IMG/VR virus record: IMGVR_UViG_3300033076_000672
Coordinates: 1-51,121 of that record
From: a virus
Taxonomy: Duplodnaviria > Caudoviricetes
Direction: 5' to 3' (one strand)
DNA: 51,121 nucleotides
The notes beneath the pieces are model-generated. The model was not told the origin of the DNA, made no database searches, and saw nothing but the letters and a program-made list of their open reading frames with translations. Shown here piece after piece: positions 26,597-44,311 of this stretch. Position 1 is the stretch's first letter. Every line of letters starts with the position of its first letter. The translations under genes and the position numbers were made by a program.

Positions 26597-29500
26597 ATGG
26601 CCACTTTAGACCAACTTCGCTCCCTGTTTCCTAATGCTGCAACAGATGCAGATGTTATTACGCAAGCGGCGGATCGGTATGGAATTAGCCCCGCCGAAAT
26701 TGCTTCGGAAGTTGGCTATTCGCAATCGCGCAGTGGCTTGACTGGGCAGCAGTTTTCTTCTGCGATCGACCGTTACCAAGCTGGTCTGTATGGCGTAGGC
26801 GAAGCTGCCTTGGGTGCACTTGGCGCGGAGTCTGCTTCTGGCTGGATGGCAGCACAACGTCGTGAAAACGAACTTCGTGCTGACCTGGCTTCTGAGCGTG
26901 CCCGTGAGATGGGCGCTGTCCAAGAATGGAAAGATGTCCACGGTATTGGCGACTTCGGTAGCTACGCCAAGGGTCTGGCCATTCAATCGGTGCCCTACGC
27001 AGCTGAAGCACTGGCTGGCGGTCTTGTCACTCGCGGGCTTATGTCCGGTACTCGTGCGGCGCTTGCTGGAGCCCAGACTGTTGAGGAACTCGCCGCAGCC
27101 AAGAAGGCACTGAACATTGGCAGCACCGTTGGTGGTGTCGCCGCATCCTATCCATCCGCGGTAGGCGATGTTCTCAGTAACCAGCGGGAAGAAGGCCAGA
27201 CCAACTTCGGAGCCGCTGCAGCTCTGGGCGTTCCCTACGCCGCTCTGAATGCGTTCGGCGTTGAAGGTGCACTATCCCGCGGTATGGGCGCACGCGCTGT
27301 GAACATGCTGGACCGGACAACTGGCGTGACTGGTGCTGCATTGCGTACCGGCTCGTCCATGGCCAAGTCTGGCGCACAGGAAGCCGTTGGTGAAACACTG
27401 CAGGAAGTGACCAACCAGCTTGGCCGCATGGCGGTCAACCCCAATGTCAGCCTCACAGATGAAGCTGCGCTTGAGAGGTACAAAGAATCTGCTATCGGTG
27501 GCGCAGTACTGGGTGGCGCGTTTGGCTCTGTTGGTGGCTGGCGTCGTTCGTCCAGTTTCCTGCCTGGCTCCAACCAAAGTGGCGAAACTCCCACTACGCC
27601 TGACGCCCCGAAGAACGAAATCTCTCAAGAGTTCACGGCCAAGTCGGAAGCCTCTGCTGAAAACCTCATGGCCGGCCTCGCTGGCCAACCCAATCTGCTG
27701 GGCGGTCGCGCTGGTTTGTATGAGGGTGCTACTGTGCCCGCGCCTCCCGTCGTCGCTGGCGGTGAGACCGATGTTGCTTTTGCGCAACAACAGGCTAATG
27801 CAGAGAATCAGGCTACGCAAGCAGCTCTGCAACAGCAAGCTACACGCGAGCGTATTTACTCCGAGTTCGGTATTGCTGACCCGCAAAATCCGACTAAGGG
27901 CAACTTGTTCGGTAAGCCGATCTATGGCCCCGCAGTTCCTGCCGTAGCTGACGCAGTGGCCGCAGTTACGCAGAACATGACCCCCACCCAGCTGGCCATC
28001 GCACAAGCGGTGAATCAGGCGAGCGCCGCCACAGGGAACATGATGTTGAACTACCAGTTCAACGCAAACGACCCAGTCAAGTCTGTACAGAAAGCGTTTG
28101 ACGCCGTGGGCAAGGTCGCCACTGGCTTGCAGATTGGGCATGTCCAGTCTGTGGACGAAGCCGCGCAGATTCTCAACGAGCAATCCAATAGCCTCAAAGG
28201 GCAAAAGCTGGATCAGCTCAACGCTGTTTACTCCGCCCTGACCGGCGAAGACACCGCGGGCTATATTGCAGCCCAGCAACCGAAAGCAACCAAAGGAGCT
28301 AAAGATGGAAAACTGCAATTGCAAACAAATGCCGGGGTGGGAGAAGTTCCAGTCCAAGGCGGAGCAGGAGAAGCAATCTCTGGAGGAGCTGGGGCTGTAC
28401 GACCCGCTCAAGTTCAACCCGTCGGAGCAGGAAGTGTCGGAGCGGGACCGACTGGCCAGCAAGCTGGACAGCCGACAGCAGGCGGAGTACGGACAGGCAC
28501 CAGTGCAGACACCGGTGTTGGCGTATCCGAGCCTGTCGGGCAGGGGCAAGGGCCGGGGCAAGTAAATGAACAGCCCGCAGAAACCGTCGGCCAAACCACC
28601 CAAACCGCAGTACAGCCCGCAGGCCAAGGAGCAACTGCGCCAAGCATGGGTCAACCTGCCGGGCGTACTCAAGCCGTACCTGAAGTCGGGCAAGTAAGCA
28701 CTGCGGCAGAGGTACTCGCTGACCGCATGGAAGCTATCGCTGATGAAGCGATGCAGCTTCTTGTACCTCCGACCTCCCGCATGGATGAAGCCACCGCGCA
28801 GAAACAGCGCGACTTCATCTTCACGCTATTGGTCAACGGGCCGTACGACTCGCTGGCAGTCATGGCTGCAGATTTTGGTATCAAAGAATCCCAAGCCAAA
28901 GATTGGTCTGCGAAGGCCAAGGCTATGCAGGATGACCCGACCAAGCTGGCTGCTGCGTTCCGTGCAGTTGCGGATCAGCACGGCATTACCGTTGCCGAAC
29001 TGATGGACGGCATTGGCGTCAAGGCTGCACAAGAAGCTGCCCAGGCACCCGAGCAAGTCGTTGCGGGTACGGAGCGTGAGCTCATTGACGAAGGCCTGGA
29101 AGTTAAAGGCCGCAAGTCCGGTGAAAGCCTGCAAGAGCGCTACAACAAGGTCGAGACGAATCAGGCTAAATACCTGCGTTTGTCTGAGCAACTCGAAGCC
29201 GCCGAAAACGACGGTGACGAAGAAGCCGCAGCTCGTATCAGCGCAGAGCTGGACGCAGTGTTGGCCAAGGGTGTTGAGCAGTCGGATAAGCGCTCCAAGC
29301 GAGCTGCCCCCAAGGCGGCCAAAGCTAAAACCGAAGCACCGACCACGGCAGCTGAAGAACTCAGCGAGGATAAGCGCAAAGCTCAGGAGGCTGAAGCTGC
29401 CAAGCTACGCGCCGAGATTGCTGCGAAAACTGCAGCAGAACGCAAGGGCCTGGAAGTTGGCGACACCGTCGTCAATCCCAAGTTGGGTACAGGTACGGTG

Positions 29501-32500
29501 CTTAGCTTTGCTGGCAACGGCGCTAGCACTACGGTTACTGTGAAGTTCAAGAGCGGCGAGACCAAGGAGCTGTCTGTTGCCGCGGCCAAACTGGAGAAAA
29601 CCAATGCCGTTCAAGAGCCAAGCGCAGAGGAAGTTTCTGTTCGCCAACGAGCCCGAGGTGGCAAAGCGGTGGGCGAAGGAGACACCGAAGGGGGCAAAGC
29701 TGCCGCCGAAGGTAAGCCAGCCGCCGAAGAAATCCGCACCCCGCAAGAGCAGTGGGAAGCGCTAGCCGATAGCACCCCCGGCATGCCGCCCTATGAGTCG
29801 CTGACCAAAGAGGAACGCACTCGCTGGGATGATCTGGCACACCGTGGCGTGGCCAACCTGTCTGCTGCTAATGAGATTGTTGGTGGTAGTAATCCTCTCG
29901 CAAGCCGTAGCCGTAACTTCATAGAGTTTGAAGACGTTGAAGCGCAGGTTAGTGGGATTGACGACATCCGTGATGAGCTGGCCGATCTCGGAATTGAGAA
30001 CGCGCTCGACTTTATTAGCGACTGGGAGCTGATCAGCGACAACTCTAAGGACGCGTTCCATGGGCTGCTGCGCTCGGATAATGGTCGCTACAACGCCACA
30101 GTGAACTTGGCCAAGGCTGATACTCCCGGCTACGCAGCAGAAGTGGCAATGCACGAGATTGGGCATGCAGTTGATATGGCCCCGCACGGCGGTGTATATT
30201 CTGGCCAGCCGGAGATGAGCGTGTCGCTTAAGGACGGGGTAGTTACTCCCGTAGGCAAGATAGCTCGTGAACTGCACGCGCTGTATAAATCTATGCCGGC
30301 GGTGCAAAAGTTTCTGGAGTATCCGTTTAATGCGAAAGCGCATAAGGAACTGGACTCCAACTCCATCATAGAGATGGAACTGTTTGCCCAAATCTTTGCG
30401 CTGTACAGCCGGGCTAAGAGCCGGGCTTTCCTAGAACAACACGCCCCTCAGACAGCGGCGTTTATGAAAGAGGTCGTCAATGACATCAAGTCTACAAGAG
30501 CGCTTCAAGTCCAGAAGGCAGAAACTGCAGCGAAGCGCACCCTTGCGTTCCGCAATCGCGGTGCCGCCGGAGGCAATCAAGGCGCGGCTCGAGTTCCTGG
30601 ACTCCCTCGACGAGAAGGGCCAACTGCGCTCGCAAGCCGGAGCAAAGAAAGCCTGATCGGGGAGCTGCCGCCGGCAGCTCAAAAGCCGGTGCGCAACAGC
30701 ATCGCGTCCATCACGGACTTCGCCAACAAAGCGATTGACCGCGTGGTATTTACTAGCGACTTGCTGAGCCGCGCTGTGGACGCTGGCGTCTCCTCGGCTA
30801 AGAAATTTGAGCGCTTGCTGGCCGAGCGTGGCACCAAGGCCCGTGCGCTGGAGCGGGGTGTCGAGCGCATCGCTGACCAGTACGCTACGCTGCCTGAGAA
30901 AGACAAAGGTACTGGCCCCAACAGCGTCAACCAGTTTTTGTTCGACTCCACTCGCACCATGAAATGGGGCTACGGCAAATACCGCGACGCCGAGATGGGT
31001 GCCCGCTTCGATGCGCTGGACCCCAAGAGCCAGGCGTTCATCAAGGCAGTGTTTGCCCACGGGGACAAGATTCTGTCCCAGAAAAAGCAGACCGTCTTGG
31101 ACTACGCTTCATCTGAGTACGATGCGCTGATTGCAGCAACCACGGACCCCAAGGAACTGGCCAAGCTGAAAGCCGACAAGGCTGCAGACCTGAAAAAGTT
31201 TGCGTCGATGTTTGCCATTCGTGAGGGTAAACCCTACGCTCCAATCAAGCGCATGGGCGATTATGTGGTTGTCGCCAAGTCTGAAGCGTACCGCAAGGCG
31301 GAAGAGCTTAATGACACCGCTGCCCTGAACCGGTTCAAGGCTGACCCTGACCACTACCATGTGAGCTTTACCCAGACCAAGTCGGAGGCTCGTGCGTTGG
31401 CTGACCAGCTGCGTGAACAGGGCTTCTTCGGCGCTTCCCCGGACGCCGTGGACTTCTTTGAGAAGACCAAGTTTGGCCGCGATGAGATGGCCAACAACAG
31501 CACACTGGATGCGCTGACACGCCTGCGCTCAGTTATCAATGCCCGCGCCGCAGAGGGCGACAAGAGCGCCGCAGCAATGCAGACTTTGGTAACAGACTTG
31601 TTCTTGCAGAACCTGTCCGAGAACAGCGCCCGCAAGTCGGAGATGCGCCGCCGCGGTGTTGCAGGCGAAGTGGACATGCTTCGCTCGTTTGCTTCTCAGG
31701 GGCGGGCCGATGCGCAGTTCCTCGCTTCTATTGAGATGAACCCGCAAGTGCAGGACGCAGTCCAAGAAATGCGCGCGCAAGTTAAGCAAGGCGGCAATCG
31801 CGACCGCAAGTCTGAGCTGATGAATGAGATCATGGCCCGCTACGAAAAGTCGCTGGCCCGTGGGGACACCCCGACGATCGACAAGCTGACGCGTTTGAGC
31901 TCAATCTGGTATCTGGCCACTAGCCCTGCATACTATTTCCAGAACTTGACGCAACCGTGGATGATGTCGGTACCGGCGATGGCTGGGCGGCACAACTACA
32001 GCAGCTCGTCGACTGCGCTGTTCAAAGCTTACTCTGAGCTTGGCCCGCTCATGAAGTCCGCCAAACTGTTCGAGCAGCAATTTGATTTCTCCAAAGTGCC
32101 CGCCGACGTACGCGCTGCTATCCAAGAGCTGGCCAACCGCGGCAAGATCGACATTGGCCTGGAGACGGAACTCGGTGAATTCAAGATTGACGGTAGCGGC
32201 GCGCTTACGGATCGCTGGAACAAAGTCGACAAGGGCATGCGTATCGCAGTTCAAAAGGTTGAGGCTATCAACAGGTTGTCCACAGCCATTGCTGCGTATC
32301 GCCTGGAGCTGGCCAAGACTGGCAGCGCTGAAAAAGCCCTGGACTACGCTGACCGCATCCTGACTGAGACCCATGGTGACTACACCGCGTTTAACTCCCC
32401 GCGTGTGTTTAACAACCCCGTGGGCAAGGTGGCACTGCAGTTCCGCAAGTTCCAGCTGATTCAGTTGACGTTCTACGCCAAGCTGATCCGTGATGCCTAT

Positions 32501-33388
32501 GAAGGCAAAGACCGTGCGATGGCTTTGAAAACTCTGGCGTACTCGCTTGGCCACACCGGCATGCTGGCTGGTGTCATGGGCTTGCCCGGTTACGCTGCGA
32601 TTTCGGCGATTTTGGGCGCACTGCTCGGCGATGACGACGAAGAATACGATCTGACCAAAGAGCTGCGCACTATGATAGGTGACGAGGATATCGCCAACCT
32701 GATTCTGCGCGGAGCGCCCACCATCGCTGGTATGGACTTGTCTGGCAAAGTCGGCGCGGGCAACATGCTCTCCATCATGCCGTTTAGCAACGCTGACCTG
32801 ACAACCAAGTCCGGCGTGTATGAAGCGCTTGGTCAGTTGCTGGGCGGTGCGGCTGCGGGTATGGCAGCCAAGTTTGCCGATGGCTTGGGTTTGATGTTGT
32901 CGGGCGACTGGTACAAGGGCCTGGAGCAAATGCTGCCGAAAGGCCTGGCAGATCCGATGAAAGCCGCTCGCATTGCCAACGAAGGTATGACTCGCCGCAA
33001 CGGTGACGTGGTGCTGCCTGAATCGGAAATCTCCAGCTTGGACGCTGTGTGGCAGGCTATCGGGCTTTCCCCCGTGAAGCAGGCTGTGGTTTATGAGCGC
33101 CAGCAGAACATCCGCGACGTGGGGCAGAAGTTTCAGGACCGCTCGACGGAGATCAAGAACCGCTACACCAAGGCTGCCAAGTCTGGGGATACCGCGGAAA
33201 TGGCTGCGCAACGCGAAGCTTGGGCCAAGCTGCAAGCTGCCCGTATGAACAGTGGGTACACCCGTCAGCCAATGTCTGAACTGCTCAAAGCGCCGCAAGA
33301 CCAAGCCAAGCGCGAGCGTCAGACCGTGGGCGGCGTCCAGTACAACAAGGCCAACCGCGCCGCGGTGCTGGCAGAAGCTAACCTGTAA
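26597..33388 (+). CDS. Giant polyvalent ejection protein (Tudor-like, zincin HExxH, PLxRFG-like and LPD-like C-terminal region)
   Basis: 2263 aa. Tudor-like segment at 29450-29599, HEIGH at 30152-30166, PYAPIKRMG near 31232. Last large gene of the virion module. Confidence 0.8.
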   Translation: MATLDQLRSLFPNAATDADVITQAADRYGISPAEIASEVGYSQSRSGLTGQQFSSAIDRYQAGLYGVGEAALGALGAESASGWMAAQRRENELRADLASERAREMGAVQEWKDVHGIGDFGSYAKGLAIQSVPYAAEALAGGLVTRGLMSGTRAALAGAQTVEELAAAKKALNIGSTVGGVAASYPSAVGDVLSNQREEGQTNFGAAAALGVPYAALNAFGVEGALSRGMGARAVNMLDRTTGVTGAALRTGSSMAKSGAQEAVGETLQEVTNQLGRMAVNPNVSLTDEAALERYKESAIGGAVLGGAFGSVGGWRRSSSFLPGSNQSGETPTTPDAPKNEISQEFTAKSEASAENLMAGLAGQPNLLGGRAGLYEGATVPAPPVVAGGETDVAFAQQQANAENQATQAALQQQATRERIYSEFGIADPQNPTKGNLFGKPIYGPAVPAVADAVAAVTQNMTPTQLAIAQAVNQASAATGNMMLNYQFNANDPVKSVQKAFDAVGKVATGLQIGHVQSVDEAAQILNEQSNSLKGQKLDQLNAVYSALTGEDTAGYIAAQQPKATKGAKDGKLQLQTNAGVGEVPVQGGAGEAISGGAGAVRPAQVQPVGAGSVGAGPTGQQAGQPTAGGVRTGTSADTGVGVSEPVGQGQGPGQVNEQPAETVGQTTQTAVQPAGQGATAPSMGQPAGRTQAVPEVGQVSTAAEVLADRMEAIADEAMQLLVPPTSRMDEATAQKQRDFIFTLLVNGPYDSLAVMAADFGIKESQAKDWSAKAKAMQDDPTKLAAAFRAVADQHGITVAELMDGIGVKAAQEAAQAPEQVVAGTERELIDEGLEVKGRKSGESLQERYNKVETNQAKYLRLSEQLEAAENDGDEEAAARISAELDAVLAKGVEQSDKRSKRAAPKAAKAKTEAPTTAAEELSEDKRKAQEAEAAKLRAEIAAKTAAERKGLEVGDTVVNPKLGTGTVLSFAGNGASTTVTVKFKSGETKELSVAAAKLEKTNAVQEPSAEEVSVRQRARGGKAVGEGDTEGGKAAAEGKPAAEEIRTPQEQWEALADSTPGMPPYESLTKEERTRWDDLAHRGVANLSAANEIVGGSNPLASRSRNFIEFEDVEAQVSGIDDIRDELADLGIENALDFISDWELISDNSKDAFHGLLRSDNGRYNATVNLAKADTPGYAAEVAMHEIGHAVDMAPHGGVYSGQPEMSVSLKDGVVTPVGKIARELHALYKSMPAVQKFLEYPFNAKAHKELDSNSIIEMELFAQIFALYSRAKSRAFLEQHAPQTAAFMKEVVNDIKSTRALQVQKAETAAKRTLAFRNRGAAGGNQGAARVPGLPRREGPTALASRSKESLIGELPPAAQKPVRNSIASITDFANKAIDRVVFTSDLLSRAVDAGVSSAKKFERLLAERGTKARALERGVERIADQYATLPEKDKGTGPNSVNQFLFDSTRTMKWGYGKYRDAEMGARFDALDPKSQAFIKAVFAHGDKILSQKKQTVLDYASSEYDALIAATTDPKELAKLKADKAADLKKFASMFAIREGKPYAPIKRMGDYVVVAKSEAYRKAEELNDTAALNRFKADPDHYHVSFTQTKSEARALADQLREQGFFGASPDAVDFFEKTKFGRDEMANNSTLDALTRLRSVINARAAEGDKSAAAMQTLVTDLFLQNLSENSARKSEMRRRGVAGEVDMLRSFASQGRADAQFLASIEMNPQVQDAVQEMRAQVKQGGNRDRKSELMNEIMARYEKSLARGDTPTIDKLTRLSSIWYLATSPAYYFQNLTQPWMMSVPAMAGRHNYSSSSTALFKAYSELGPLMKSAKLFEQQFDFSKVPADVRAAIQELANRGKIDIGLETELGEFKIDGSGALTDRWNKVDKGMRIAVQKVEAINRLSTAIAAYRLELAKTGSAEKALDYADRILTETHGDYTAFNSPRVFNNPVGKVALQFRKFQLIQLTFYAKLIRDAYEGKDRAMALKTLAYSLGHTGMLAGVMGLPGYAAISAILGALLGDDDEEYDLTKELRTMIGDEDIANLILRGAPTIAGMDLSGKVGAGNMLSIMPFSNADLTTKSGVYEALGQLLGGAAAGMAAKFADGLGLMLSGDWYKGLEQMLPKGLADPMKAARIANEGMTRRNGDVVLPESEISSLDAVWQAIGLSPVKQAVVYERQQNIRDVGQKFQDRSTEIKNRYTKAAKSGDTAEMAAQREAWAKLQAARMNSGYTRQPMSELLKAPQDQAKRERQTVGGVQYNKANRAAVLAEANL
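28305..28565 (+). CDS. Overprinted +1-frame ORF A (86 aa) inside the giant gene
   Basis: AAAGGAG SD 6 nt before the ATG; MENCNCKQMPGWEKF... Confidence 0.5.
   Translation: MENCNCKQMPGWEKFQSKAEQEKQSLEELGLYDPLKFNPSEQEVSERDRLASKLDSRQQAEYGQAPVQTPVLAYPSLSGRGKGRGK
28566..28697 (+). CDS. Overprinted +1-frame ORF B (43 aa)
   Basis: ATG directly follows the TAA of ORF A; MNSPQKPSAKPPKPQYSPQAKEQLRQAWVNLPGVLKPYLKSGK. Confidence 0.4.
   Translation: MNSPQKPSAKPPKPQYSPQAKEQLRQAWVNLPGVLKPYLKSGK
29604..29765 (+). CDS. Overprinted +1-frame ORF C (53 aa, MPFKSxAQR-type small phage protein)
   Basis: GGAG SD; MPFKSQAQRKFLFANEPEVAKRWAKETPKG resembles a small phage protein type I recognise as a stand-alone gene. 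Confidence 0.65.
   Translation: MPFKSQAQRKFLFANEPEVAKRWAKETPKGAKLPPKVSQPPKKSAPRKSSGKR
30480..30656 (+). CDS. Overprinted +1-frame ORF D (58 aa)
   Basis: GAGGT SD; MTSSLQERFKSRRQKLQ...PPEAIKARLEFLDSLDEKG. Confidence 0.45.
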   Translation: MTSSLQERFKSRRQKLQRSAPLRSAIAVPPEAIKARLEFLDSLDEKGQLRSQAGAKKA

Positions 33389-33717: not shown

Positions 33718-36705
33718 TCACTGGCCAGCGGATGATACCGCATGTTGCACATTTGCAACAGTAGCTGGACCCGAAGTTTTGTCCACTGCGCCTTCCATCG
33801 CATCGAAGTCAAAGGCATACACTGCGGCAGATCCCGTGGTGAACGCTGTCCCCCGCCCGATGTTGAACCGCTCCGAGAATGGCACGAGCCACTTGACGCT
33901 CTTGCAGTAGTCCAACACGGTCTTGGGGTCGACACGGTTCTTGGCGCACCAGTCGTTGAACTCCCGCTTAGCCACAAACAGCTTGCCCACCACTTTGGGG
34001 TCCACCTTCTCGGTGCTGTTGGGGCTTGCAATACCCAGCACACGCCGGCCTGCCGGTGTTCCGATCACGCGGGACATGCTCTCTTCCGGGCCTCGTGCGT
34101 CGGTACGGGTGTCGCGGTACGTCGCTGTCACGATGATGCGGTTGGACAAATCACGAACCATACGGCCCATCGCGTCTTCCGGCGTCGTGACGTTGGACGT
34201 CACCACGGTGCCCATCAGGTCGTGCATCAGGCGGTTGGTGAAGTCTTCCAGACCAGCGTAGTCAAAGTCCACGATGCCGAGGTCGATAAGAATCCGGGCA
34301 GCTGTCAGTGTGCATGTCGCGTGGTTGCGGAAGAACCGATACTCCGATTGCGGCATCAGCTGGTTCATTCGCTTGTTAATCGAGCTGAACAACTTGGCCA
34401 CATCGTTTTGGTTGGCCACCACAAATCGCAGGAACGCGTCGCCAGCATGGCCGCTGTTTGCTCGCATTTCTTCCAGGGCGTCCGAAGCCAGACTGGCCGG
34501 TTTGAGGATGGGCACCCCGTAGGTTGCGAAGTTCACGCTGATCATACGAACAGCCTCGGCCTGCGTGTTGGCATTGAACTGAGCGAGCTTGGCGTGCATG
34601 TCTTCGTTGGCCGTCAACCCCACGACTGATCGCCACGTATGCTGGGTGGCAAGGCTGACCTTACCACCACTGGATGTCATGCGGGAACGTTCCACACCTT
34701 GGGTGACGGTGTACGCCAGCTGGCTCAGGTCGGATGCTTCCATGTCGGTCATCTCGTCCAGCACGATAGGCAGGTTCTTGTGTGTACCGATCTTGCCCCA
34801 GCGAGCGTTATCAGTTGCACCCTTCTTGCCGCCTAACACCATCTTGTTGGCATCGCACAAGCCATACAGTGCGGCCTTCCACACCGTGGTCTTGCCCATA
34901 CCGGACTGAGTGCTGTTGACGGCCACGAGCGCGCCGTTGTAGCTGTCTTCGCCGAACGGTGTCAGGATGGAACCATACACGTTGCAGAACACGTACTGCG
35001 CTGCTTCGCTACTGGCACGGTTGTACAGGAAGTTCACTGCCTTGGTGTATCCGGCAAGTGACCCGCGGGGCTCCGCATAGATATGCGACTCACCGGCAGC
35101 TGCGCCACCGACGTACACCTTGCGGACAGAGCCATCAGAGTGATACAGGCGCTCACCAAGGAGGAAACCCTCCATGTTGTCTCGCCAGCCAAAGCTGGTC
35201 AGAGTGTCGACCTCGCGCTGCTCGGTCATGAGTTTGTGGATGGAGTCGCGCAAATACGCTGTCAGGTGCATAGTAGCGTCCTTGTTGTTGGTCGGCATCA
35301 GCTCGAATCTGGACAGAGCCTTGAGCAGGTCTGTCGAAGACGCCAGCGACGCGGTGTCAACTTCAAAGTCACGGATGCGCTTGTCAGGCAAGTGCATCCG
35401 GATAGTAAAAGCATACGTACCGTCCACGCGGCGGATACGCTGGATCGGGTAGAACAAGGCCAAGCAGAACGTGTACGGCTGGTTGATCCCGTCCTTGTCC
35501 ATCACCACGCGGACCATGTGCCCGTTCGTGTATGCGTAGCTTGCTGGCAGCGCAGGAACAGTTGTCTCGACCTCGTGCCCCTCGTCAGTCTGGGCTTCCA
35601 TTACTTGCTCAGTGGTCTCGGGAGCCACACGCCCCAGCTGGATCGGGGAAGTAATCTTGCCCTTGTGGGGGCAGCTAGCGCATGCGGTCGGGTTGCAAGC
35701 TTCCAGCGCCGCGCAGGTAGCTGGTCCCTTGTCCCAGGTCTCATAGCGGGTCAGCACATCGGTGTTGCTGTGGCCAGTCTCACCACGGCGCTCACTCCAT
35801 TGGGCGGCCAGCTCGTAGCCTTCAGTACAGTGTTTAATAACGCCAATGACGCTCCACCAATGCTGGTAGCTCACGTCACCCTGTGTGTCACGCATTGCGG
35901 CCATCTGCGCGCAGTGGTTAGCAGCCTCATCAGCCGAAGATTCAACTTGCGGCCCCAGGTGCGCGGTCAGGTCGTCATTAAGTCCTGCGAATGCGGCGTA
36001 CTTATTAGTGGAGGGCAGCTCGACCGACTGAGTAATTTCCCTAAGTACGGTCAGTAGGTTCGCCGGGTCCGTAAAAGTAGGAGCTGTCTTGGCCACGACT
36101 TCCCGAGGATCACGTCCGGGCTTGCGGTTATGCGTGCCCACAGGTCGCAGTACCGACGACAGATCAGCAGTACGGGTTGGGTCAACCAGCAGGCCCGCGT
36201 CCTTGAAAGCCGCCTTGAGCATCGTGGCCATCGTCACCCAGCTGTTCGGACCGATCGACTTGGTCAGAGGCCAGTAGCAATGGATACCACCGCCAGAGTC
36301 CACGATCATCGGAGCGGGAAGACCCTTTGTAGAGCAGAACCCACGGATGGCTTTGGCAGCTTCGCCCTTGGTGGCGTAGCCAGAACCTTCAGCAGCCTTT
36401 TTCTCGCCGCAGTCAATGTCGGCCCAGAACGCCTTAGCCTTGAACCAGTTGGGCTGGCCGCGGTACTTGGTCTTGGGCTTGCCTTCAAAGTCGGTGCCCT
36501 CGAAGCTGGGGGCCTTGTAAGCGGCGCAAGCGTGGTAGACGGTCAGGTTCTCCTGCACGTCGTAGGAGTCAATGGCCTCGGCCATGACTTCCAGGGATTC
36601 ATAGGCCTTATGGGCAAGGCCCTGCCGGCCCGCCCTGCCAAGAGCTACAAACTTGTAGCCATCCTCTGGGAGGATTGTTTGAAGGAACTCAAGGGTGTTC
36701 ATCAC
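33718..36705 (-). CDS. DNA primase-helicase (AEP/RepB-like primase, PriCT-like domain, DUF927-type helicase)
   Basis: FWADIDC, DSGGGIHCYW and VLRPVGT primase motifs; CxxCPH; Walker A QSGMGKT and Walker B IVLDE. Confidence 0.88.
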   Translation of the reverse strand: MMNTLEFLQTILPEDGYKFVALGRAGRQGLAHKAYESLEVMAEAIDSYDVQENLTVYHACAAYKAPSFEGTDFEGKPKTKYRGQPNWFKAKAFWADIDCGEKKAAEGSGYATKGEAAKAIRGFCSTKGLPAPMIVDSGGGIHCYWPLTKSIGPNSWVTMATMLKAAFKDAGLLVDPTRTADLSSVLRPVGTHNRKPGRDPREVVAKTAPTFTDPANLLTVLREITQSVELPSTNKYAAFAGLNDDLTAHLGPQVESSADEAANHCAQMAAMRDTQGDVSYQHWWSVIGVIKHCTEGYELAAQWSERRGETGHSNTDVLTRYETWDKGPATCAALEACNPTACASCPHKGKITSPIQLGRVAPETTEQVMEAQTDEGHEVETTVPALPASYAYTNGHMVRVVMDKDGINQPYTFCLALFYPIQRIRRVDGTYAFTIRMHLPDKRIRDFEVDTASLASSTDLLKALSRFELMPTNNKDATMHLTAYLRDSIHKLMTEQREVDTLTSFGWRDNMEGFLLGERLYHSDGSVRKVYVGGAAAGESHIYAEPRGSLAGYTKAVNFLYNRASSEAAQYVFCNVYGSILTPFGEDSYNGALVAVNSTQSGMGKTTVWKAALYGLCDANKMVLGGKKGATDNARWGKIGTHKNLPIVLDEMTDMEASDLSQLAYTVTQGVERSRMTSSGGKVSLATQHTWRSVVGLTANEDMHAKLAQFNANTQAEAVRMISVNFATYGVPILKPASLASDALEEMRANSGHAGDAFLRFVVANQNDVAKLFSSINKRMNQLMPQSEYRFFRNHATCTLTAARILIDLGIVDFDYAGLEDFTNRLMHDLMGTVVTSNVTTPEDAMGRMVRDLSNRIIVTATYRDTRTDARGPEESMSRVIGTPAGRRVLGIASPNSTEKVDPKVVGKLFVAKREFNDWCAKNRVDPKTVLDYCKSVKWLVPFSERFNIGRGTAFTTGSAAVYAFDFDAMEGAVDKTSGPATVANVQHAVSSAGQ

Positions 36706-36953
36706 ACCCCCGTGATGATTCGCTTGTCTTGGGCCTCGGCACCGACCTTGATGGTCATGCCAATGTGGTTAGCGGCAACTTGCGCAAGTTCTTTGGCCTG
36801 CACGCCGTTCTCGCAGGCTTCCACGATGATGCGGCCAATCAGTTCGGCCAAGCCAAGGATGACTTCTCCGTGGTTGAAATCTTTGCCCGACAGCGCTTGG
36901 TTCGTCTCAATAACAACGCCCGCAACTTTTCTCTGGTCAATTTGGTATGACAT
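36702..36953 (-). CDS. Hypothetical protein
   Basis: 83 aa; GGAG SD; coupled to the primase gene. Confidence 0.75.
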   Translation of the reverse strand: MSYQIDQRKVAGVVIETNQALSGKDFNHGEVILGLAELIGRIIVEACENGVQAKELAQVAANHIGMTIKVGAEAQDKRIITGV

Positions 36954-36965
36954 CTACAGCTCCAG

Positions 36966-37012
36966 AAATAAAAAGCCCCGAAGGGCCACGCACGTTGGGG
37001 GCCGAAGCCCCC
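36966..37012 (-). terminator. Double UUCG hairpin/terminator after SSB
   Basis: GGGGGC-TTCG-GCCCCC, then GCCC-TTCG-GGGC followed by TTTTATTT on the - strand. Confidence 0.8.
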
Positions 37013-37019
37013 ATTCGTT

Positions 37020-37937
37020 TTAGTCGTCGAAGTTCAGGTCGTCGAGATCCAGGCTCGGCACTTCTGTGTCTTCGGGGGCAACCGGCTTAGGTTCTGCCGG
37101 TTTGGCTTTGGGCGCAGCAGCTTTCGGGGCAGGAGCAGCCTCAACCTTGGCGGCCTTGGGTGGCTCGCCAACCAGATCAGCTGTAGAGTCCGGCTCGGCA
37201 GCCGGAGCGCCTTCACTCACGAAACCAGAACCCAGAATGGCTTGCACCACGTCGCCAGCAGCAGTTTCTTGGACTTCGGCAAACGCCTTGTCGTTGAGGA
37301 AACCCGTAGCCTTGAACGTCAGCTTGGGGGTGGGGGAGTCCATCTCGAAGCCGATCTTGGTGACTACTGCGGAGTAAGGCACACCGCGCTTAGCCAGAGC
37401 CTTGCCGTACTCGCCCAGAGCTTTGATGGTGGCCGGGGGCACACGCAGCAGGTAGGGGTCGTTGATCAGATCAGGTGTCGCGATGGCCATACGCACAGAG
37501 TCAGCACAGGCTTTACCCTTGCCGCCGTTGTCACCGATCTTGGAGCCCCACTGGTTATGCGGGCAGGCAGCGCAGGACTTGGCTTGAGGGTTCTGGATAC
37601 CAGCGTCGGGGTGGGTGCCGTTGTTGGAGAAGCAGTCAGGCTTCTGGTTCTCAGCACCGTCTTGATAGCCCTTGAGGTAGAACACTTTGGAGTTCTGCTT
37701 GTTGGCTTTGATCAGCACCACGTCGATTGAAGGAGCGGGAATTTCCTCGCCGTCCACGGACTTGGTCAGCACAGTGCGCTCGCCGTCACGGACCACGGCA
37801 AAGACTTTGCCCTTGATCGAGATGATGGGGAAGCCTGTACCAGCATGTGCCGTCAGGTCGTCGTTGAGTCCTTGCACATTGGCGGACTTGAGGTAGGCGG
37901 GAAGGTTGGCGGATTCAAAAGGGATGATGTTACTCAT
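37020..37937 (-). CDS. Single-stranded DNA-binding/annealing protein
   Basis: PDCFS...CAACPHNQWGS...GKAC motif; acidic tail LDDLNFDD; inside the replication module. Confidence 0.75.
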   Translation of the reverse strand: MSNIIPFESANLPAYLKSANVQGLNDDLTAHAGTGFPIISIKGKVFAVVRDGERTVLTKSVDGEEIPAPSIDVVLIKANKQNSKVFYLKGYQDGAENQKPDCFSNNGTHPDAGIQNPQAKSCAACPHNQWGSKIGDNGGKGKACADSVRMAIATPDLINDPYLLRVPPATIKALGEYGKALAKRGVPYSAVVTKIGFEMDSPTPKLTFKATGFLNDKAFAEVQETAAGDVVQAILGSGFVSEGAPAAEPDSTADLVGEPPKAAKVEAAPAPKAAAPKAKPAEPKPVAPEDTEVPSLDLDDLNFDD

Positions 37938-39972: not shown

Positions 39973-40236
39973 TTATTTTCCGTATGCTTTGCCGTTGGTC
40001 TTACGCCAGCCGCGATTCTCGGTTTGCGACTTGACTTGCAGGTTGCTACGTGCGTTGGTGCCACCGCCGTCCAGCATCTTCTTGTGGTCAACGTCTTTAC
40101 CGTCGCCCTTCTTGACCACGCCTTCGCGCATCAGCTTGGCTCGTGCTGCGTTGCGCTCTTCGCGCTTGTTAACTTGGTCAGGGCGGGCGTTGTATGCTTT
40201 GTCATACGCGGCCTTCTTGGGTCCACCTTTGTTCAT
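39973..40236 (-). CDS. Small HNH-motif protein
   Basis: DVDHKK...GGTN..SNL...NR. Confidence 0.75.
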   Translation of the reverse strand: MNKGGPKKAAYDKAYNARPDQVNKREERNAARAKLMREGVVKKGDGKDVDHKKMLDGGGTNARSNLQVKSQTENRGWRKTNGKAYGK

Positions 40237-40535
40237 ACCGAACCTCCGTTGTGATTAAGGAACTCGATCAGTTGTGTCGCATCGTCGACCACGAGGGACC
40301 ATCCCCCATGCTCTTGAATCTCTTGCAGCTTCCTGTCTTGGTTAGCTGTGGTGTCGTTGCGCTTACCGGGGGCCTTGGTCTCGATGGCCAAGAACTGCCC
40401 CTTCCAGCAGCAGATGAAGTCGGGGATACCGACCACCCCGAATCCGTTTTGCATCGGCATGAAGAACCAGATGCCCCGAGCTTGCAGAACTCTCTTAACT
40501 GCAGCTTTGACTTTGCCTTCTGGAGTTGTCGCCAT
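40233..40535 (-). CDS. VRR-NUC nuclease (Holliday junction resolvase-like)
   Basis: PEGKVK, GIPDF, IETK and TANQ motifs. Confidence 0.9.
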   Translation of the reverse strand: MATTPEGKVKAAVKRVLQARGIWFFMPMQNGFGVVGIPDFICCWKGQFLAIETKAPGKRNDTTANQDRKLQEIQEHGGWSLVVDDATQLIEFLNHNGGSV

Positions 40536-41575: not shown

Positions 41576-44311
41576 TTACTTCGCGTCGCCATAGGACTTA
41601 CCCGCATCGCCCTCACAGGCTACTGGCAGGTTTGCACACCATGCGGGTGGGGTGGACATGATCTGGATCATCAGATCAAGACACTGCTTGGCGTAGCTCT
41701 CGGGAACCACGGCCACCACCTCATCATGAACCGTAAGGACCACTTTGTGGCGGGCTGTGTGCGTGTCCATCTTGCGCAGGATCTGGTCAATCTTGGCCAT
41801 CTGGTCGAACACAACGATACGGGCCAGGGCCTGAACTACGTTCTCAACTACCTTACCGCCGTAGATCTTAACGGGGCCGTAGCGTCCATCGTACAGGTAC
41901 TGGTTCTCAGCCCGGTCGAACCGCAGGTTCGGATACCGAATCATCGTGTGGTTGGGCAGGTGGATGCCCTCGGGGGTACAGCGCAGCTGAATGCCGATAC
42001 CCAGTTCGGTCTCCATGCCGCGGGCCATTTTGTCCAGTGCAGCACTGGCCAGCTTCCACAGCTCAGCGATCTTGGCGTATTTGTTGCGATAAATGTTGAC
42101 CGTGTTCTTGGCTTGCTCGTCATCAAACTCCACGCTGATACCGCCAGCGCCAATCTTCAGCGTGCTCTTGAACTTCTCCCAGCCCATGCCGTACCCGAGT
42201 CCGAGAATACAGTTGTGGACAATCAGTGGTCCGTCTTCAGTCAGTACCGTGAATCTGTGCCTCGGCCCTGCGCAAGCGAGATCGTAAACTTGCAAGTTCC
42301 GCTTCGAGGTCAGCGATGCGTCGTTTGTTTCGGAGGTTATCGCTGCGAGAGACGAATCGGATGTTGCCGGGTTCGTAGTTGCCGTTAACGTCAATCCGGT
42401 CCATCTCAAACTCCGGGCGATCCCAGCCATCCAGCGTTTGTACGTAGCGGAGAAAGCTCGCTCGGTCGTCCCGCCATTGCTGGGCAACTGATATGCCGCG
42501 CTTCCCATAATGGGGATAGGCACTGTTTGTTGCTGTGTGACAACGCGTAATGGCAGACGCCAGTCGGTTGAGGAGCCGTGTTCGGTGTGCGTCATCGGCC
42601 ATTGCGGCTGAATAAGCCCAGTACCGTTTTGCTGCACTAGCAGTTTTGGCGCATACGGGGCATCTGGTGCTCTTGAAGGCTTTGAAGTTTTGTCGGTCCA
42701 CGGTGTACTCGACGCCGTTGCATCCACATCGGACCACGAGTGCTGATACCCCTGACCTGATGCCCCGTACGTAGCCTGTGACGGTAAGTTTTCCGCTGCG
42801 GTGGCCAATGCTTGGTAACGGATGCTTGGCTCTTGCGCCACTGATTGCGCTTCCAGCCATTGCGTCCCTGACCACACTTGGTGATCCGGAGTCAACCAGA
42901 GCCCGGAAAGACTCAATGTTGGCTTGATGCCGTTGTTCACTAATCCTTTGTGGCATACCCACTCCTCCCCGTCCCACAGCTGGTCTTGCGTGGTCACCTG
43001 CTCAATCGGCTTCCACCCTGAATCGCATAGTACCAGAGTTCCCTCGGCAAGACAAGTCTTCCCAACAAAGCCTTCGACCTTGTCTGGGTTGAACTCCTTG
43101 CCTGTGGCCGGGTCGACCTCTTTGCGTTTGCGGTCCACGGGCCTGCCGTAAACCATGCTGGCAAACTTAGAGTAGATGTCCACGTTCTTGCGGAAGTCTT
43201 CAACCAGATCGGTCTGGCCAGCGAACCATGCCACCACACGGGCTTCAATCTGCGAGGAGTCCACGGCGAGCATGGAGTAACCCTCGGGCGCAATGATTGA
43301 GCGGCGCAGCGCCCCGCCGCGAGGCAGGTTCTGCAGGTTCATCTTATCCCCACCGCTGGCACGACCTGTGTGAGCACCCCAATAGTTAAGCAGGATCGGC
43401 AGAGTGCCCCGCTGAGCAATCCCAATGAATGACTCAGTACGGGTTTCTTCGAGCGTAGACTTAATGCCGAGACGCGCAGCAACGACGGCCTGCACCGCTG
43501 CTTTAGGGTGCTCGAGCAGAGCTTTGAACTCGTGGTCGGTTTTGCCAAAGGCATAGGTTTCTTTCTGTGTACGAAGGCTGACCTTCATGGGAGGCTCAAC
43601 ACCTAGCTTGCGCAGCACCTCAGCAAACTTAGGGTTAGACATGAGCGCGTCACGGCCAATGGAGTTGTCGATCTTGTCCATCAGCTTTTGCTTGTTGAGC
43701 TGCACTGTGGCCAGGTGATTGACAAGAACTGCTTCGTCCAACTGTAGCACCGGGTCCGTGAACATGCGCAGCATCAGATCTTGGATGTACAGCTCACGCG
43801 GCGGGTTCCATTGTCGCAGGATGTGGTACAGGTTCCACGTCAACTGCACGTCGTTCTTGCAGTATTCACCGTACTTGGACAGCTCTGCTGGGGTGAAGTC
43901 TTCACGGCGTTTACCCATGGCAGCGATGACTTCCTTGCCCTTCTCACCAAGCGCGAATTTCTGGGCCAGCTTCTCCAGCGAGCCGCCCACTGTGTGTCCC
44001 GTGATAGGTCGCGCCATACTCAGCGTATCCAGATAGTACTTAGGCAGGATGCCGTAGCGGAAAGCCAAGATGGCCCCGTCAAAAGCGGCGTTGTGTGCGA
44101 TCAGGTAGCTATTCTCAATGTCCAGCTCACGTAGGGCCAGTTCGATGTCGGCGTCAGTGCCGCTCACCCACACAGGCTCGCCGTCGTTAATCTTGTAGCC
44201 GAAGCCGATGACCTGGAACTGCTTGTCGCGGATGTAGTTTTCGGTAGTGATCTTCGAGAGTGAGAAGTCCTTACTGTAGAACGTCTCAAAATCCAAGCAG
44301 ATGTATTTCAT
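41576..44311 (-). CDS. polA: Family A DNA polymerase with intein (630 aa after splicing)
   Basis: Exonuclease motifs DFETF and HNAAFD; TGR, NLQNLP; motif A DSSQIEAR; motif B KT/CILGLGYG split by the intein; motif C TVHDE. Confidence 0.95.
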   Translation of the reverse strand: MKYICLDFETFYSKDFSLSKITTENYIRDKQFQVIGFGYKINDGEPVWVSGTDADIELALRELDIENSYLIAHNAAFDGAILAFRYGILPKYYLDTLSMARPITGHTVGGSLEKLAQKFALGEKGKEVIAAMGKRREDFTPAELSKYGEYCKNDVQLTWNLYHILRQWNPPRELYIQDLMLRMFTDPVLQLDEAVLVNHLATVQLNKQKLMDKIDNSIGRDALMSNPKFAEVLRKLGVEPPMKVSLRTQKETYAFGKTDHEFKALLEHPKAAVQAVVAARLGIKSTLEETRTESFIGIAQRGTLPILLNYWGAHTGRASGGDKMNLQNLPRGGALRRSIIAPEGYSMLAVDSSQIEARVVAWFAGQTDLVEDFRKNVDIYSKFASMVYGRPVDRKRKEVDPATGKEFNPDKVEGFVGKTCLAEGTLVLCDSGWKPIEQVTTQDQLWDGEEWVCHKGLVNNGIKPTLSLSGLWLTPDHQVWSGTQWLEAQSVAQEPSIRYQALATAAENLPSQATYGASGQGYQHSWSDVDATASSTPWTDKTSKPSRAPDAPYAPKLLVQQNGTGLIQPQWPMTHTEHGSSTDWRLPLRVVTQQQTVPIPIMGSAAYQLPSNGGTTERAFSATYKRWMAGIARSLRWTGLTLTATTNPATSDSSLAAITSETNDASLTSKRNLQVYDLACAGPRHRFTVLTEDGPLIVHNCILGLGYGMGWEKFKSTLKIGAGGISVEFDDEQAKNTVNIYRNKYAKIAELWKLASAALDKMARGMETELGIGIQLRCTPEGIHLPNHTMIRYPNLRFDRAENQYLYDGRYGPVKIYGGKVVENVVQALARIVVFDQMAKIDQILRKMDTHTARHKVVLTVHDEVVAVVPESYAKQCLDLMIQIMSTPPAWCANLPVACEGDAGKSYGDAK
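42212..43054 (-). mobile_element. Intein (281 aa) in polymerase motif B
   Basis: Block A CLAEGTLV, block B LTPDHQV, block F VYDL, block G LIVHN followed by extein Cys. Removal restores GKTCILGLGYGMG. Confidence 0.93.
42237..42956 (-). CDS. HNH homing endonuclease overprinted out of frame within the intein (239 aa)
   Basis: GGAGGAG SD before ATG 42956; GKLTV, CGC...CPVC, RC...YGKRGISV...W...F and MDRIDVNGNYEPGNIRFVSRSDNLRNKR motifs. Confidence 0.88.
   Translation of the reverse strand: MPQRISEQRHQANIESFRALVDSGSPSVVRDAMAGSAISGARAKHPLPSIGHRSGKLTVTGYVRGIRSGVSALVVRCGCNGVEYTVDRQNFKAFKSTRCPVCAKTASAAKRYWAYSAAMADDAHRTRLLNRLASAITRCHTATNSAYPHYGKRGISVAQQWRDDRASFLRYVQTLDGWDRPEFEMDRIDVNGNYEPGNIRFVSRSDNLRNKRRIADLEAELASLRSRLRRAEAQIHGTD

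Follow-up and report, generated by a model that had tools for sequence, protein, structure and literature searches.

A predicted endonuclease gene nested out of frame within a phage DNA polymerase intein, and the intein family to which it belongs

Where is the endonuclease of an intein whose own reading frame encodes none? The question is raised by a DNA polymerase gene in IMG/VR virus record IMGVR_UViG_3300033076_000672, all 51,121 nucleotides of which were analysed and are here called the window. The window is a contig of a tailed phage with terminase, portal-like, capsid, tail, endolysin, helicase and exonuclease genes. Its polymerase gene, on the minus strand, contains an intein in motif B, and within that intein, on the same strand and at an offset of +2 relative to the intein frame, lies a second open reading frame (ORF). 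The intein likely self-splices, and the nested ORF probably yields a separately started nuclease of 239 aa that would cut intein-free alleles in co-infection and so lead to copying of the whole element. This reading is based on sequence comparison and structural models. It is directly supported by two frames that are open in a fixed phase, selection that switches from one frame to the other, a start that is kept, relatives with an empty site, and decay that is confined to the nuclease.

Inteins are recognized by a Cys at position 1, the TxxH of block B, the Asp of block F, a terminal His-Asn and a nucleophile at position +1. The insert displays this series in full (C1...T55-P-D-H58...D258...H280-N281, then Cys), while the polymerase frame remains open from one side of it to the other. 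C1, T55, H58, D258, H280 and N281 are invariant across 34 aligned inteins, with Cys at +1. In the AlphaFold model of the intein frame residues 1-90 and 251-281 are placed confidently, with pLDDT (predicted local distance difference test) values of 88-97 in ten-residue blocks, and residues 96-248 fall below 50. All 41 Foldseek matches listed for this model are inteins or other HINT domains, with probabilities of up to 1.00 and a best E value of 3.7e-3, so that none of those listed reaches E 0.001. The insert is an intein. Ser, Thr and Ala make up 37% of residues 96-248, in which LAGLIDADG-like and HNH-like patterns were sought and neither matched. An earlier note, made from the letters of the window alone, had described the 281-aa motif B intein with its Cys...TPDH...His-Asn/Cys ends, the Ser/Thr/Ala-rich middle free of LAGLIDADG and HNH motifs, the uninterrupted 239-aa ORF shifted on the same strand, and a Shine-Dalgarno (SD) sequence GGAGGAG formed by the codons for D-G-E-E; all four are present as described. 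A match of the intein frame to phrog_93, labelled 'endonuclease', was rejected as a sign of an in-frame nuclease, as it falls on profile positions 3-226, apart from positions 351-440. The latter are matched by a small nuclease elsewhere in the window (40233-40535, minus strand). With its first part matching the intein frame and positions 351-440 the small nuclease, the profile seems to have taken in sequence derived from an intein.

The shifted ORF runs from an ATG at 42956 to a TGA ending at 42237, and an alternative upstream GTG in the same frame, at 42977, would give a product of 246 aa. In PHROGs it matches HNH endonuclease families, phrog_374 best, and its predicted structure is matched by 95 viral structures at E<=0.001, several of them named HNH endonucleases, the best being an uncharacterised protein of Salmonella phage LPSE1. 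In the ESM Atlas three viral clusters match at 0.91-0.93, one of which is automatically named homing endonuclease. Among 111 aligned homologues R187, Y194 and N198 are found in every one and D186 and N207 in 110; Arg and Tyr recur in all 102 motifs found among 110 nucleases of the wider family. At the end of the first strand, where a strict HNH enzyme has its catalytic His, Arg187 stands in 111/111. Thus, of the earlier assignment to the HNH endonucleases, the nuclease frame itself is upheld by phrog_374 and the folded model, while the catalytic His is missing and Asp-Arg...Tyr...Asn is found instead. This motif, held by 110-111 of the 111, fits Asp and Asn as metal ligands with Tyr in the place of His, positions that we take to be equivalent, residue by residue, to those of PacI. 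In a wide structural search PacI (3m7k) ranks second, with Z 5.0 and a root-mean-square deviation of 3.4 over 84 residues, a weak match that is tied with an unrelated chain at Z 5.2 and lies below the tool's guide value of 8. A PacI-like His-Me finger is the best label for the nuclease and is moderately supported; the protein is predicted to behave as an HNH-type homing enzyme, yet fails the strict His test.

The two frames can be followed through 49 viral loci, of which four are cut by contig ends and one (L049) has an in-frame deletion. Among complete inteins whose nuclease is full-length, all 44 have the two frames open and in the same phase, and alignment gaps in the homologues are all multiples of three. 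Variation was analysed in 30 clusters at 95% identity, and ratios of non-synonymous to synonymous substitution (dN/dS) were obtained from 13 close pairs. The codon position that varies most is the intein's third at the ends of the element and the nuclease's third in nt 241-768. In the middle segment the ratio of non-synonymous to synonymous polymorphism (pN/pS) across the clusters is 0.33 for the nuclease frame and 1.23 for the intein frame, with corresponding dN/dS values of 0.11-0.22 and 0.64-1.51; protein identity there is 64% in the nuclease frame, 33% in the intein frame and 31% in the non-coding third frame. The intein frame of this segment nonetheless contains no stop where 4-6 are expected, whereas the third frame averages 14.8 per sequence. 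When the nuclease codons of the window's middle are recoded or shuffled, 3.4-4.5 intein-frame stops are predicted, and the probability of finding none is 0.018 and 0.006. The intein frame thus varies like the third frame yet lacks stops, and selection on the linker does no more than keep it open. Where the nuclease ORF overlaps the splicing regions, constraint lies mainly on the intein frame (pN/pS 0.46-0.48, against 0.91-0.96 for the nuclease frame), so that the first ~45 residues of the nuclease and its last helix are passengers for the most part. Extra synonymous constraint in these overlaps is not significant (four-fold site divergence of 0.46 and 0.54, against 0.54 outside, with overlapping intervals), and dual constraint was therefore dropped. 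The 720 nt that the earlier note had taken to be dual-coding are open in two frames, but constraint is split between the frames and not shared, the overlaps being governed by the intein frame. The remaining expectations, that both frames would be open in homologues, that selection would act on the nuclease frame in the middle and on the intein frame at the ends, and that structure prediction would distinguish the two (a folded nuclease; a disordered intein middle between HINT-like ends), are borne out by the same material.

How translation of the nested frame would begin is indicated by the intein codons that precede it. The GGAGGAG ends 5 nt before the ATG at 42956, and by its pairing the window ranks in the top 0.3% of a background set of 352 ATGs that lie out of frame; in 85% of 27 homologues the pairing is at or below the 5th percentile of that background. 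The ATG itself (intein nt 99) spans Val33 and Cys34 and is kept in 27 of the 30 clusters, the remaining three having an ATG or TTG two codons upstream. Synonymous choice follows suit, although the counts come from related, non-independent sequences: Val33 is GTA in 26 of 28 cases in which the residue is Val, against 37/147 in matched extein context and 44/110 in non-overlapped intein ends, and Glu30 is GAG in 18/22 against 61/170 in the background. A W-D-G-x-x-W motif, which supplies the SD sequence, persists as well in inteins that have the nuclease start at another place, and part of the SD signal is thus a by-product. A search for an internal sigma-70-like promoter upstream of the nested ORF gave one site where 1.6 are expected, and single-sequence folds of the 30 clusters revealed no common structure over the start, such as the conserved hairpin of some phage endonuclease genes. 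With neither a promoter-like site nor a shared hairpin, initiation on the polymerase mRNA would be the simplest reading. The features are collected in Table 1.

Table 1. Features of the polymerase gene, the intein and the nested ORF, in window coordinates
Feature	Position	Strand	Evidence
Host gene: precursor of a family A DNA polymerase, 911 aa, that includes a 3'-5' exonuclease domain	41576..44311	-	PF00476 E 7.9e-26; PF01612; phrog_17
Class 1-type intein, 281 aa, polymerase motif B, GKT/CILGLGYG (site a; slash marks the insertion point)	42212..43054	-	Splicing residues; HINT fold; empty relatives
N-terminal splicing region, residues 1-95 (C1, T55, H58)	42770..43054	-	pLDDT 94-97 at residues 1-90; invariant columns; intein-frame pN/pS 0.30-0.48
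Intein-frame linker, residues 96-248, predicted disordered	42311..42769	-	pLDDT <50; free of stops; dN/dS 0.64-1.51 (13 close pairs)
C-terminal splicing region (D258, H280, N281; +1 Cys)	42212..42310	-	Invariant columns; AlphaFold; pN/pS 0.18-0.46
Nested +2-frame ORF encoding 239 aa; putative homing endonuclease of the His-Me finger (PacI-like) kind	42237..42956	-	phrog_374 E 1.5e-30; mean pLDDT 89; conserved residues; viral structure matches
Beta-rich N-terminal domain of nuclease; C77, C79, C99, C102 (predicted zinc site)	42651..42815	-	111/111 aligned homologues; strands 57-86 in model
Predicted catalytic core, residues 120-212; D186, R187, Y194, N198, N207	42321..42599	-	Conservation in 111 homologues; PacI 3m7k alignment
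C-terminal amphipathic helix of nuclease, 214-236, overprinted on intein C-terminal splicing block	42249..42317	-	Helix in model; nuclease-frame pN/pS 0.96
SD-like GGAGGAG, intein codons G29-E30-E31 (within D-G-E-E)	42962..42968	-	Strongest pairing energy among starts tested

A pathway can be proposed on this basis. The polymerase precursor would splice via the standard route of Cys1, His-Asn and Cys+1, tolerating an unstructured loop of 150 aa at the position usually taken by an endonuclease, and this linker would leave with the intein on splicing. The nuclease would be initiated internally on the polymerase mRNA, at the SD sequence and ATG, and would cleave DNA in a metal-dependent reaction with Asp186 and Asn207 as ligands and Tyr194 replacing the His base, as reported for PacI; its target presumably spans the motif B codons. 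As to origin, a free-standing phage nuclease gene may have entered a mini-intein out of frame without introducing a stop into the host frame, and may then have taken an upstream start from the intein codons for W-D-G-E-E-W-V-C. Because the two functions lie in different frames, the nuclease core could be swapped or lost without touching splicing. The bipartite arrangement advanced in the earlier note is supported by the open frames, the frame-specific selection, the folded nuclease beside a disordered middle and the conserved start signals.

Mobility is suggested by the distribution of the insert. Two insertion sites occur in motif B, four codons (12 nt) apart: site a, GKT/CILG, and, downstream of it, site b, GKTTILG/CG. 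Both are empty in 79 of the 79 readable polymerases among the 80 closest relatives, in which the residue after the empty site is Cys in 72 and Ala in 7. In an extein tree made by a quick method, with long branches flagged and five loci left out as too short (L017, L022, L082, L093, L097), the window extein falls in a supported group that comprises 27 alleles with an empty site and 2 that are occupied, a placement biased towards nesting among empties since these were picked by likeness to it; the supported branches require at least three gains or losses. In the polymerases that carry a site b intein (GKTTILG/CGYG: L001-L003, L012-L015, L019, L024, L026, L027, L029, L030, L033-L035, L037 and L049), the residue at site a is Thr or Val and that at site b is Cys. 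Splicing ends sort cleanly by site, with one change (support 96), but nuclease cores do not: a core tree in which the site b inteins are held together is rejected by the approximately unbiased (AU) test (p 0.00014; 0.0023 without L011). The intein L011:2903-3736 is a mosaic that joins site a ends to a core 82-90% identical to that of the site b intein L003 over most windows of the comparison, and its core is close to those of the site b inteins L001-L003. Chimeric assembly could explain L011 by itself, but not the AU test without it. Nuclease cores have thus been transferred between inteins of sites a and b, for which ordinary recombination between related phages is a sufficient mechanism.

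A census of the wider family was taken by way of the splicing N-terminal end. It comprised 160 loci, 80 from each of two sets (the highest-ranking of 597 viral and of 94 cellular or prophage matches), reduced to 138 by removal of duplicates, with contigs partly shared with the 49-locus set. The nuclease lies at +2 in 55 of the 138 and at +1 in another 55, one of these without a visible C-terminal end; 26 are mini-inteins of 114-180 aa and two are cut off. No nuclease is in frame in any of the 110 nuclease-bearing inteins, and with a middle that is disordered and neutral in its own frame the window intein likewise departs from the canonical bifunctional layout, in which the endonuclease is in frame. 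The family occupies several polymerase sites, as well as helicases in three loci (L282:2001, L283:2001 and L298:1013, with +2, +1 and remnant nucleases). Inteins near the polymerase C-terminal motif (L113; L116-L118:3533-4375; L022:1382-2341; L004:4157-4627; L136; L137) belong to it too, and at this motif the nuclease is at +1 (L113 and phages APSE-3 and GB2A), at +2 (L022) or a deleted remnant (L004). A uniform site b lineage of ~310 aa with a +1 nuclease (L221-L296, from Gardnerella, Anaerococcus, Ruminococcus, Lachnospiraceae and others, together with L138) resides in probable prophage polymerases and has many mini derivatives. At L017 (~700-1700) a different site in the polymerase holds a split intein, the halves of which flank a related free-standing nuclease gene, as in the fractured-gene layout, and the polymerase gene also carries a contiguous site a intein. 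A series of decayed copies (L049, L150, L038, L170 and L236) shows in-frame deletions, an altered Asp-Arg motif or nonsense codons, these last confined to the nuclease frame in L170 and L236, while the intein frame is open in each. A broader proposal, that residence out of frame is the rule in a large intein family, is one that we would hold only tentatively, somewhat short of calling it probable: tyrosine-type His-Me nucleases would have entered the same splicing chassis several times and in two phases, never in frame among the 110, with the core serving as a cassette swappable between sites 12 nt apart and with the start signal and terminal helices overprinted on splicing blocks.

Cultured phages carry the element as well. 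The intein is matched by 216 records, including 145 of Salmonella phages, and 177 of the 216 cover most of it. Ten phage regions were inspected, and the +2 nuclease frame is present in six (SETP3, Ent1, SO-1, Pseudomonas MR14, Vibrio 97.13 and EBPR siphovirus 2, the region seen in the last two stopping before the end of the intein); three others hold +1 relatives (APSE-3, Caulobacter GB2A and Streptococcus Javan101). Matches of Mycobacterium phages to the intein N-terminal end were set aside, as Pacc40 gp60, the one examined among them and the last of the ten regions, differs in its middle and lacks a comparable shifted ORF. The polymerase inteins of the Jerseyvirus phages SETP3 and Ent1, of the Sodalis phage SO-1 (Dhillonvirus) and of APSE phages are of the same family as that of the window. 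The records mostly omit the nested gene, giving splicing domains only for Ent1 and nothing for SETP3, whereas that of SO-1 lists a nested gp39 HNH endonuclease and calls the insert a 'type I self-splicing intron'. That standard annotation would miss the nuclease, as had been anticipated, is illustrated both by the Ent1 record and by Pfam and NCBIfam, in which the intein frame has no family above cut-off.

Other explanations differ from the proposed pathway in how the nuclease is made or in what it does. It might be produced by a programmed ribosomal frameshift off the intein frame, as part of a truncated fusion of polymerase, intein and nuclease. In favour of this, one mRNA carries both frames over a shared 720 nt, no promoter-like site precedes the ORF, and an upstream SD-like motif is able to promote frameshifting as well. 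Against it, 27 of 30 clusters hold an ATG at a fixed spacing from the SD sequence through synonymous codon choice (with ATG or TTG two codons upstream in the other three), and called nuclease homologues in public collections number 493 that stand alone against 4 that are longer, these being gene calls and not products; frameshifting is quite unlikely. Alternatively, the ORF might be translated but serve the phage, in recombination, exclusion of co-infecting phages or breakdown of host DNA, and not homing. Purifying selection shows function without showing which, the core resembles that of a restriction enzyme, PacI, and the gene sits among replication and recombination genes. However, a site empty in every readable close polymerase allele, repeated loss by deletion or nonsense (L049, L150, L170, L236 and the 26 mini-inteins) and the location of the nuclease always within an intein in the 49 loci speak against such a role, which we consider unlikely.

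The nature of the insert and the reality of its second frame are less in doubt. The annotation of SO-1, with an HNH endonuclease gene nested in the polymerase, would suit an ORF-bearing group I intron, an element acting at the level of RNA, in which intein motifs are incidental; but in every complete copy the polymerase frame passes uninterrupted across the insert, the ends are Cys and His-Asn/Cys, and the fold is that of HINT domains. Rfam gives no match at gathering score for the window, SO-1, Ent1 and SETP3 loci, and none at E<=1 for the window region. Lack of an Rfam match is not exclusion of a group I intron, yet the intein features explain the insert, and an intron is extremely unlikely. 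Nor is the second frame at all likely to be what remains, or what misassembly has made, of an endonuclease that used to be in frame, even though gene calling can give a fused reading, as on a 1.4-kb contig (P0122, below): the phase is the same in 44/44 homologues and in cultured phages, none of the 110 family nucleases is in frame, and dN/dS is low in the shifted frame. Contigs of sequencing run X1 have no differences from the window, although X1 may be the source sample and hence is not independent; runs X2-X4 cover only short pieces. The compensating indel errors that might have displaced an in-frame HNH domain thus find no trace, either in these contigs or in the alignment gaps. The window also lacks the stop in the host frame that would make it a fractured gene.

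Against the reading of a self-splicing intein with a separately started homing nuclease several points must be set, beside the non-independence of the codon counts, the W-D-G-x-x-W motif kept where the nuclease starts elsewhere, the bias of the extein tree and the tied PacI match. The lack of a Pfam or NCBIfam family above cut-off extends to the nuclease frame, for which searches of the PDB by sequence and by Foldseek also returned nothing significant. The relative L038 has an altered Asp-Arg motif. Finally, P0122, a singleton of 425 aa on a contig of 1375 nt, has the nuclease frame fused to the intein C-terminal end and C-extein; it is either a frameshift error or a real split variant, and is a possible exception to the rule that the two are never fused.

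Some precedent for out-of-frame HNH ORFs in phage insertion elements had been mentioned in the earlier note, and the general layout is indeed already published. Gosselin, Arsenault and Gogarten (bioRxiv 10.1101/2025.01.02.630785) describe actinobacteriophage inteins with same-strand frame 3 genes that are endonuclease VII-like. These share with the window a contiguous phage intein, a disordered in-frame middle, a same-strand +2 ORF of His-Me type and a model of invasion by a free-standing gene. They differ in hosts and host genes and in the match to endonuclease VII, as compared by description with the Asp-Arg/Tyr, PacI-like protein found here; the additional ORFs there usually remain clear of the splicing domain, whereas that of the window extends into both splicing regions, which also supply its start. 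By comparison, the present family offers far more copies, two phases and frame-resolved selection. A cyanobacterial dnaX intein with a LAGLIDADG endonuclease in the +2 frame (Phillips, DeSimone and Gogarten, bioRxiv 10.64898/2026.09.14.751524, who trace the out-of-frame idea to Gorbalenya 1998) is similar in its putative SD sequence, its frame-dependent dN/dS, the absence of an in-frame version and the coexistence of full, mini and empty alleles. There, however, the nuclease is LAGLIDADG and the host gene cellular, with nuclease and intein largely congruent; here the nuclease is of predicted His-Me type in a phage polymerase, and its core is incongruent with the splicing ends.

Three further systems are related in part. 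The ShiLan domain (Arsenault et al. 2025, PMC11855218) is an out-of-frame HNH in a phage methylase, and as in the present case the HNH-type gene lies within a phage gene's insert that is free of stops, but it is described without a splicing domain or a detectable ribosome binding site, in contrast to the full intein and strong SD sequence of the window. Fractured genes combine a split intein with a free-standing endonuclease (Dassa et al. 2009, PMC2677866), which also lies within intein coding sequence and overlaps the C-terminal intein part; in these the host frame is broken and splicing occurs in trans, whereas the window host frame is open and it is the relative L017 that has the fractured layout. 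Among PacI-type His-Me nucleases (group 20, PMC5714182; PMC4081073), PacI reportedly employs Tyr instead of His, the metal ligands being Asp and Asn. The window protein is like PacI in lacking the catalytic His and in its conserved Tyr and candidate Asp and Asn ligands; the structural match, over residues 110-212, is weak, and PacI is a homodimeric restriction enzyme, the window protein a predicted homing nuclease. A literature search that covered few subscription papers found no description of the nested nuclease of the polymerase intein family and turned up no tyrosine-type His-Me homing enzyme. In the papers examined, out-of-frame intein endonucleases are described as rare and a bench test of one is not reported.

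Elsewhere in the window a 2263-aa ORF (26597-33388, plus strand) has a C-terminal part that matches DarB-like antirestriction proteins (phrog_10089). It is followed by three ORFs of ~300 aa (33742-37023, plus strand) with no PHROG match at E 1e-5, opposite which runs a stop-free frame of 995 codons (33718-36705).

With the general layout published in 2025-2026 (Gosselin; Phillips), the family of the window represents a widespread version of it that is unannotated in well-known cultured phages. What is new is the type of nuclease, the scale, the occurrence of two phases without an in-frame case, the cultured carriers and the shuffling of cores between neighbouring sites. About 620 viral stretches match the splicing motif, in addition to the cultured phages, and mobility is probable for many of the inteins that databases present as 'mini' or 'degenerate'. 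An unstructured loop of 150 aa appears to be tolerated in the intein of an essential polymerase. Through the cultured carriers, translation of the nested gene, homing, and the gain of endonucleases and of new sites become directly testable. If the out-of-frame rule and the swappable core prove true, they would provide a route by which inteins may change target site and host gene, as from polymerase to helicase, while splicing is left untouched.

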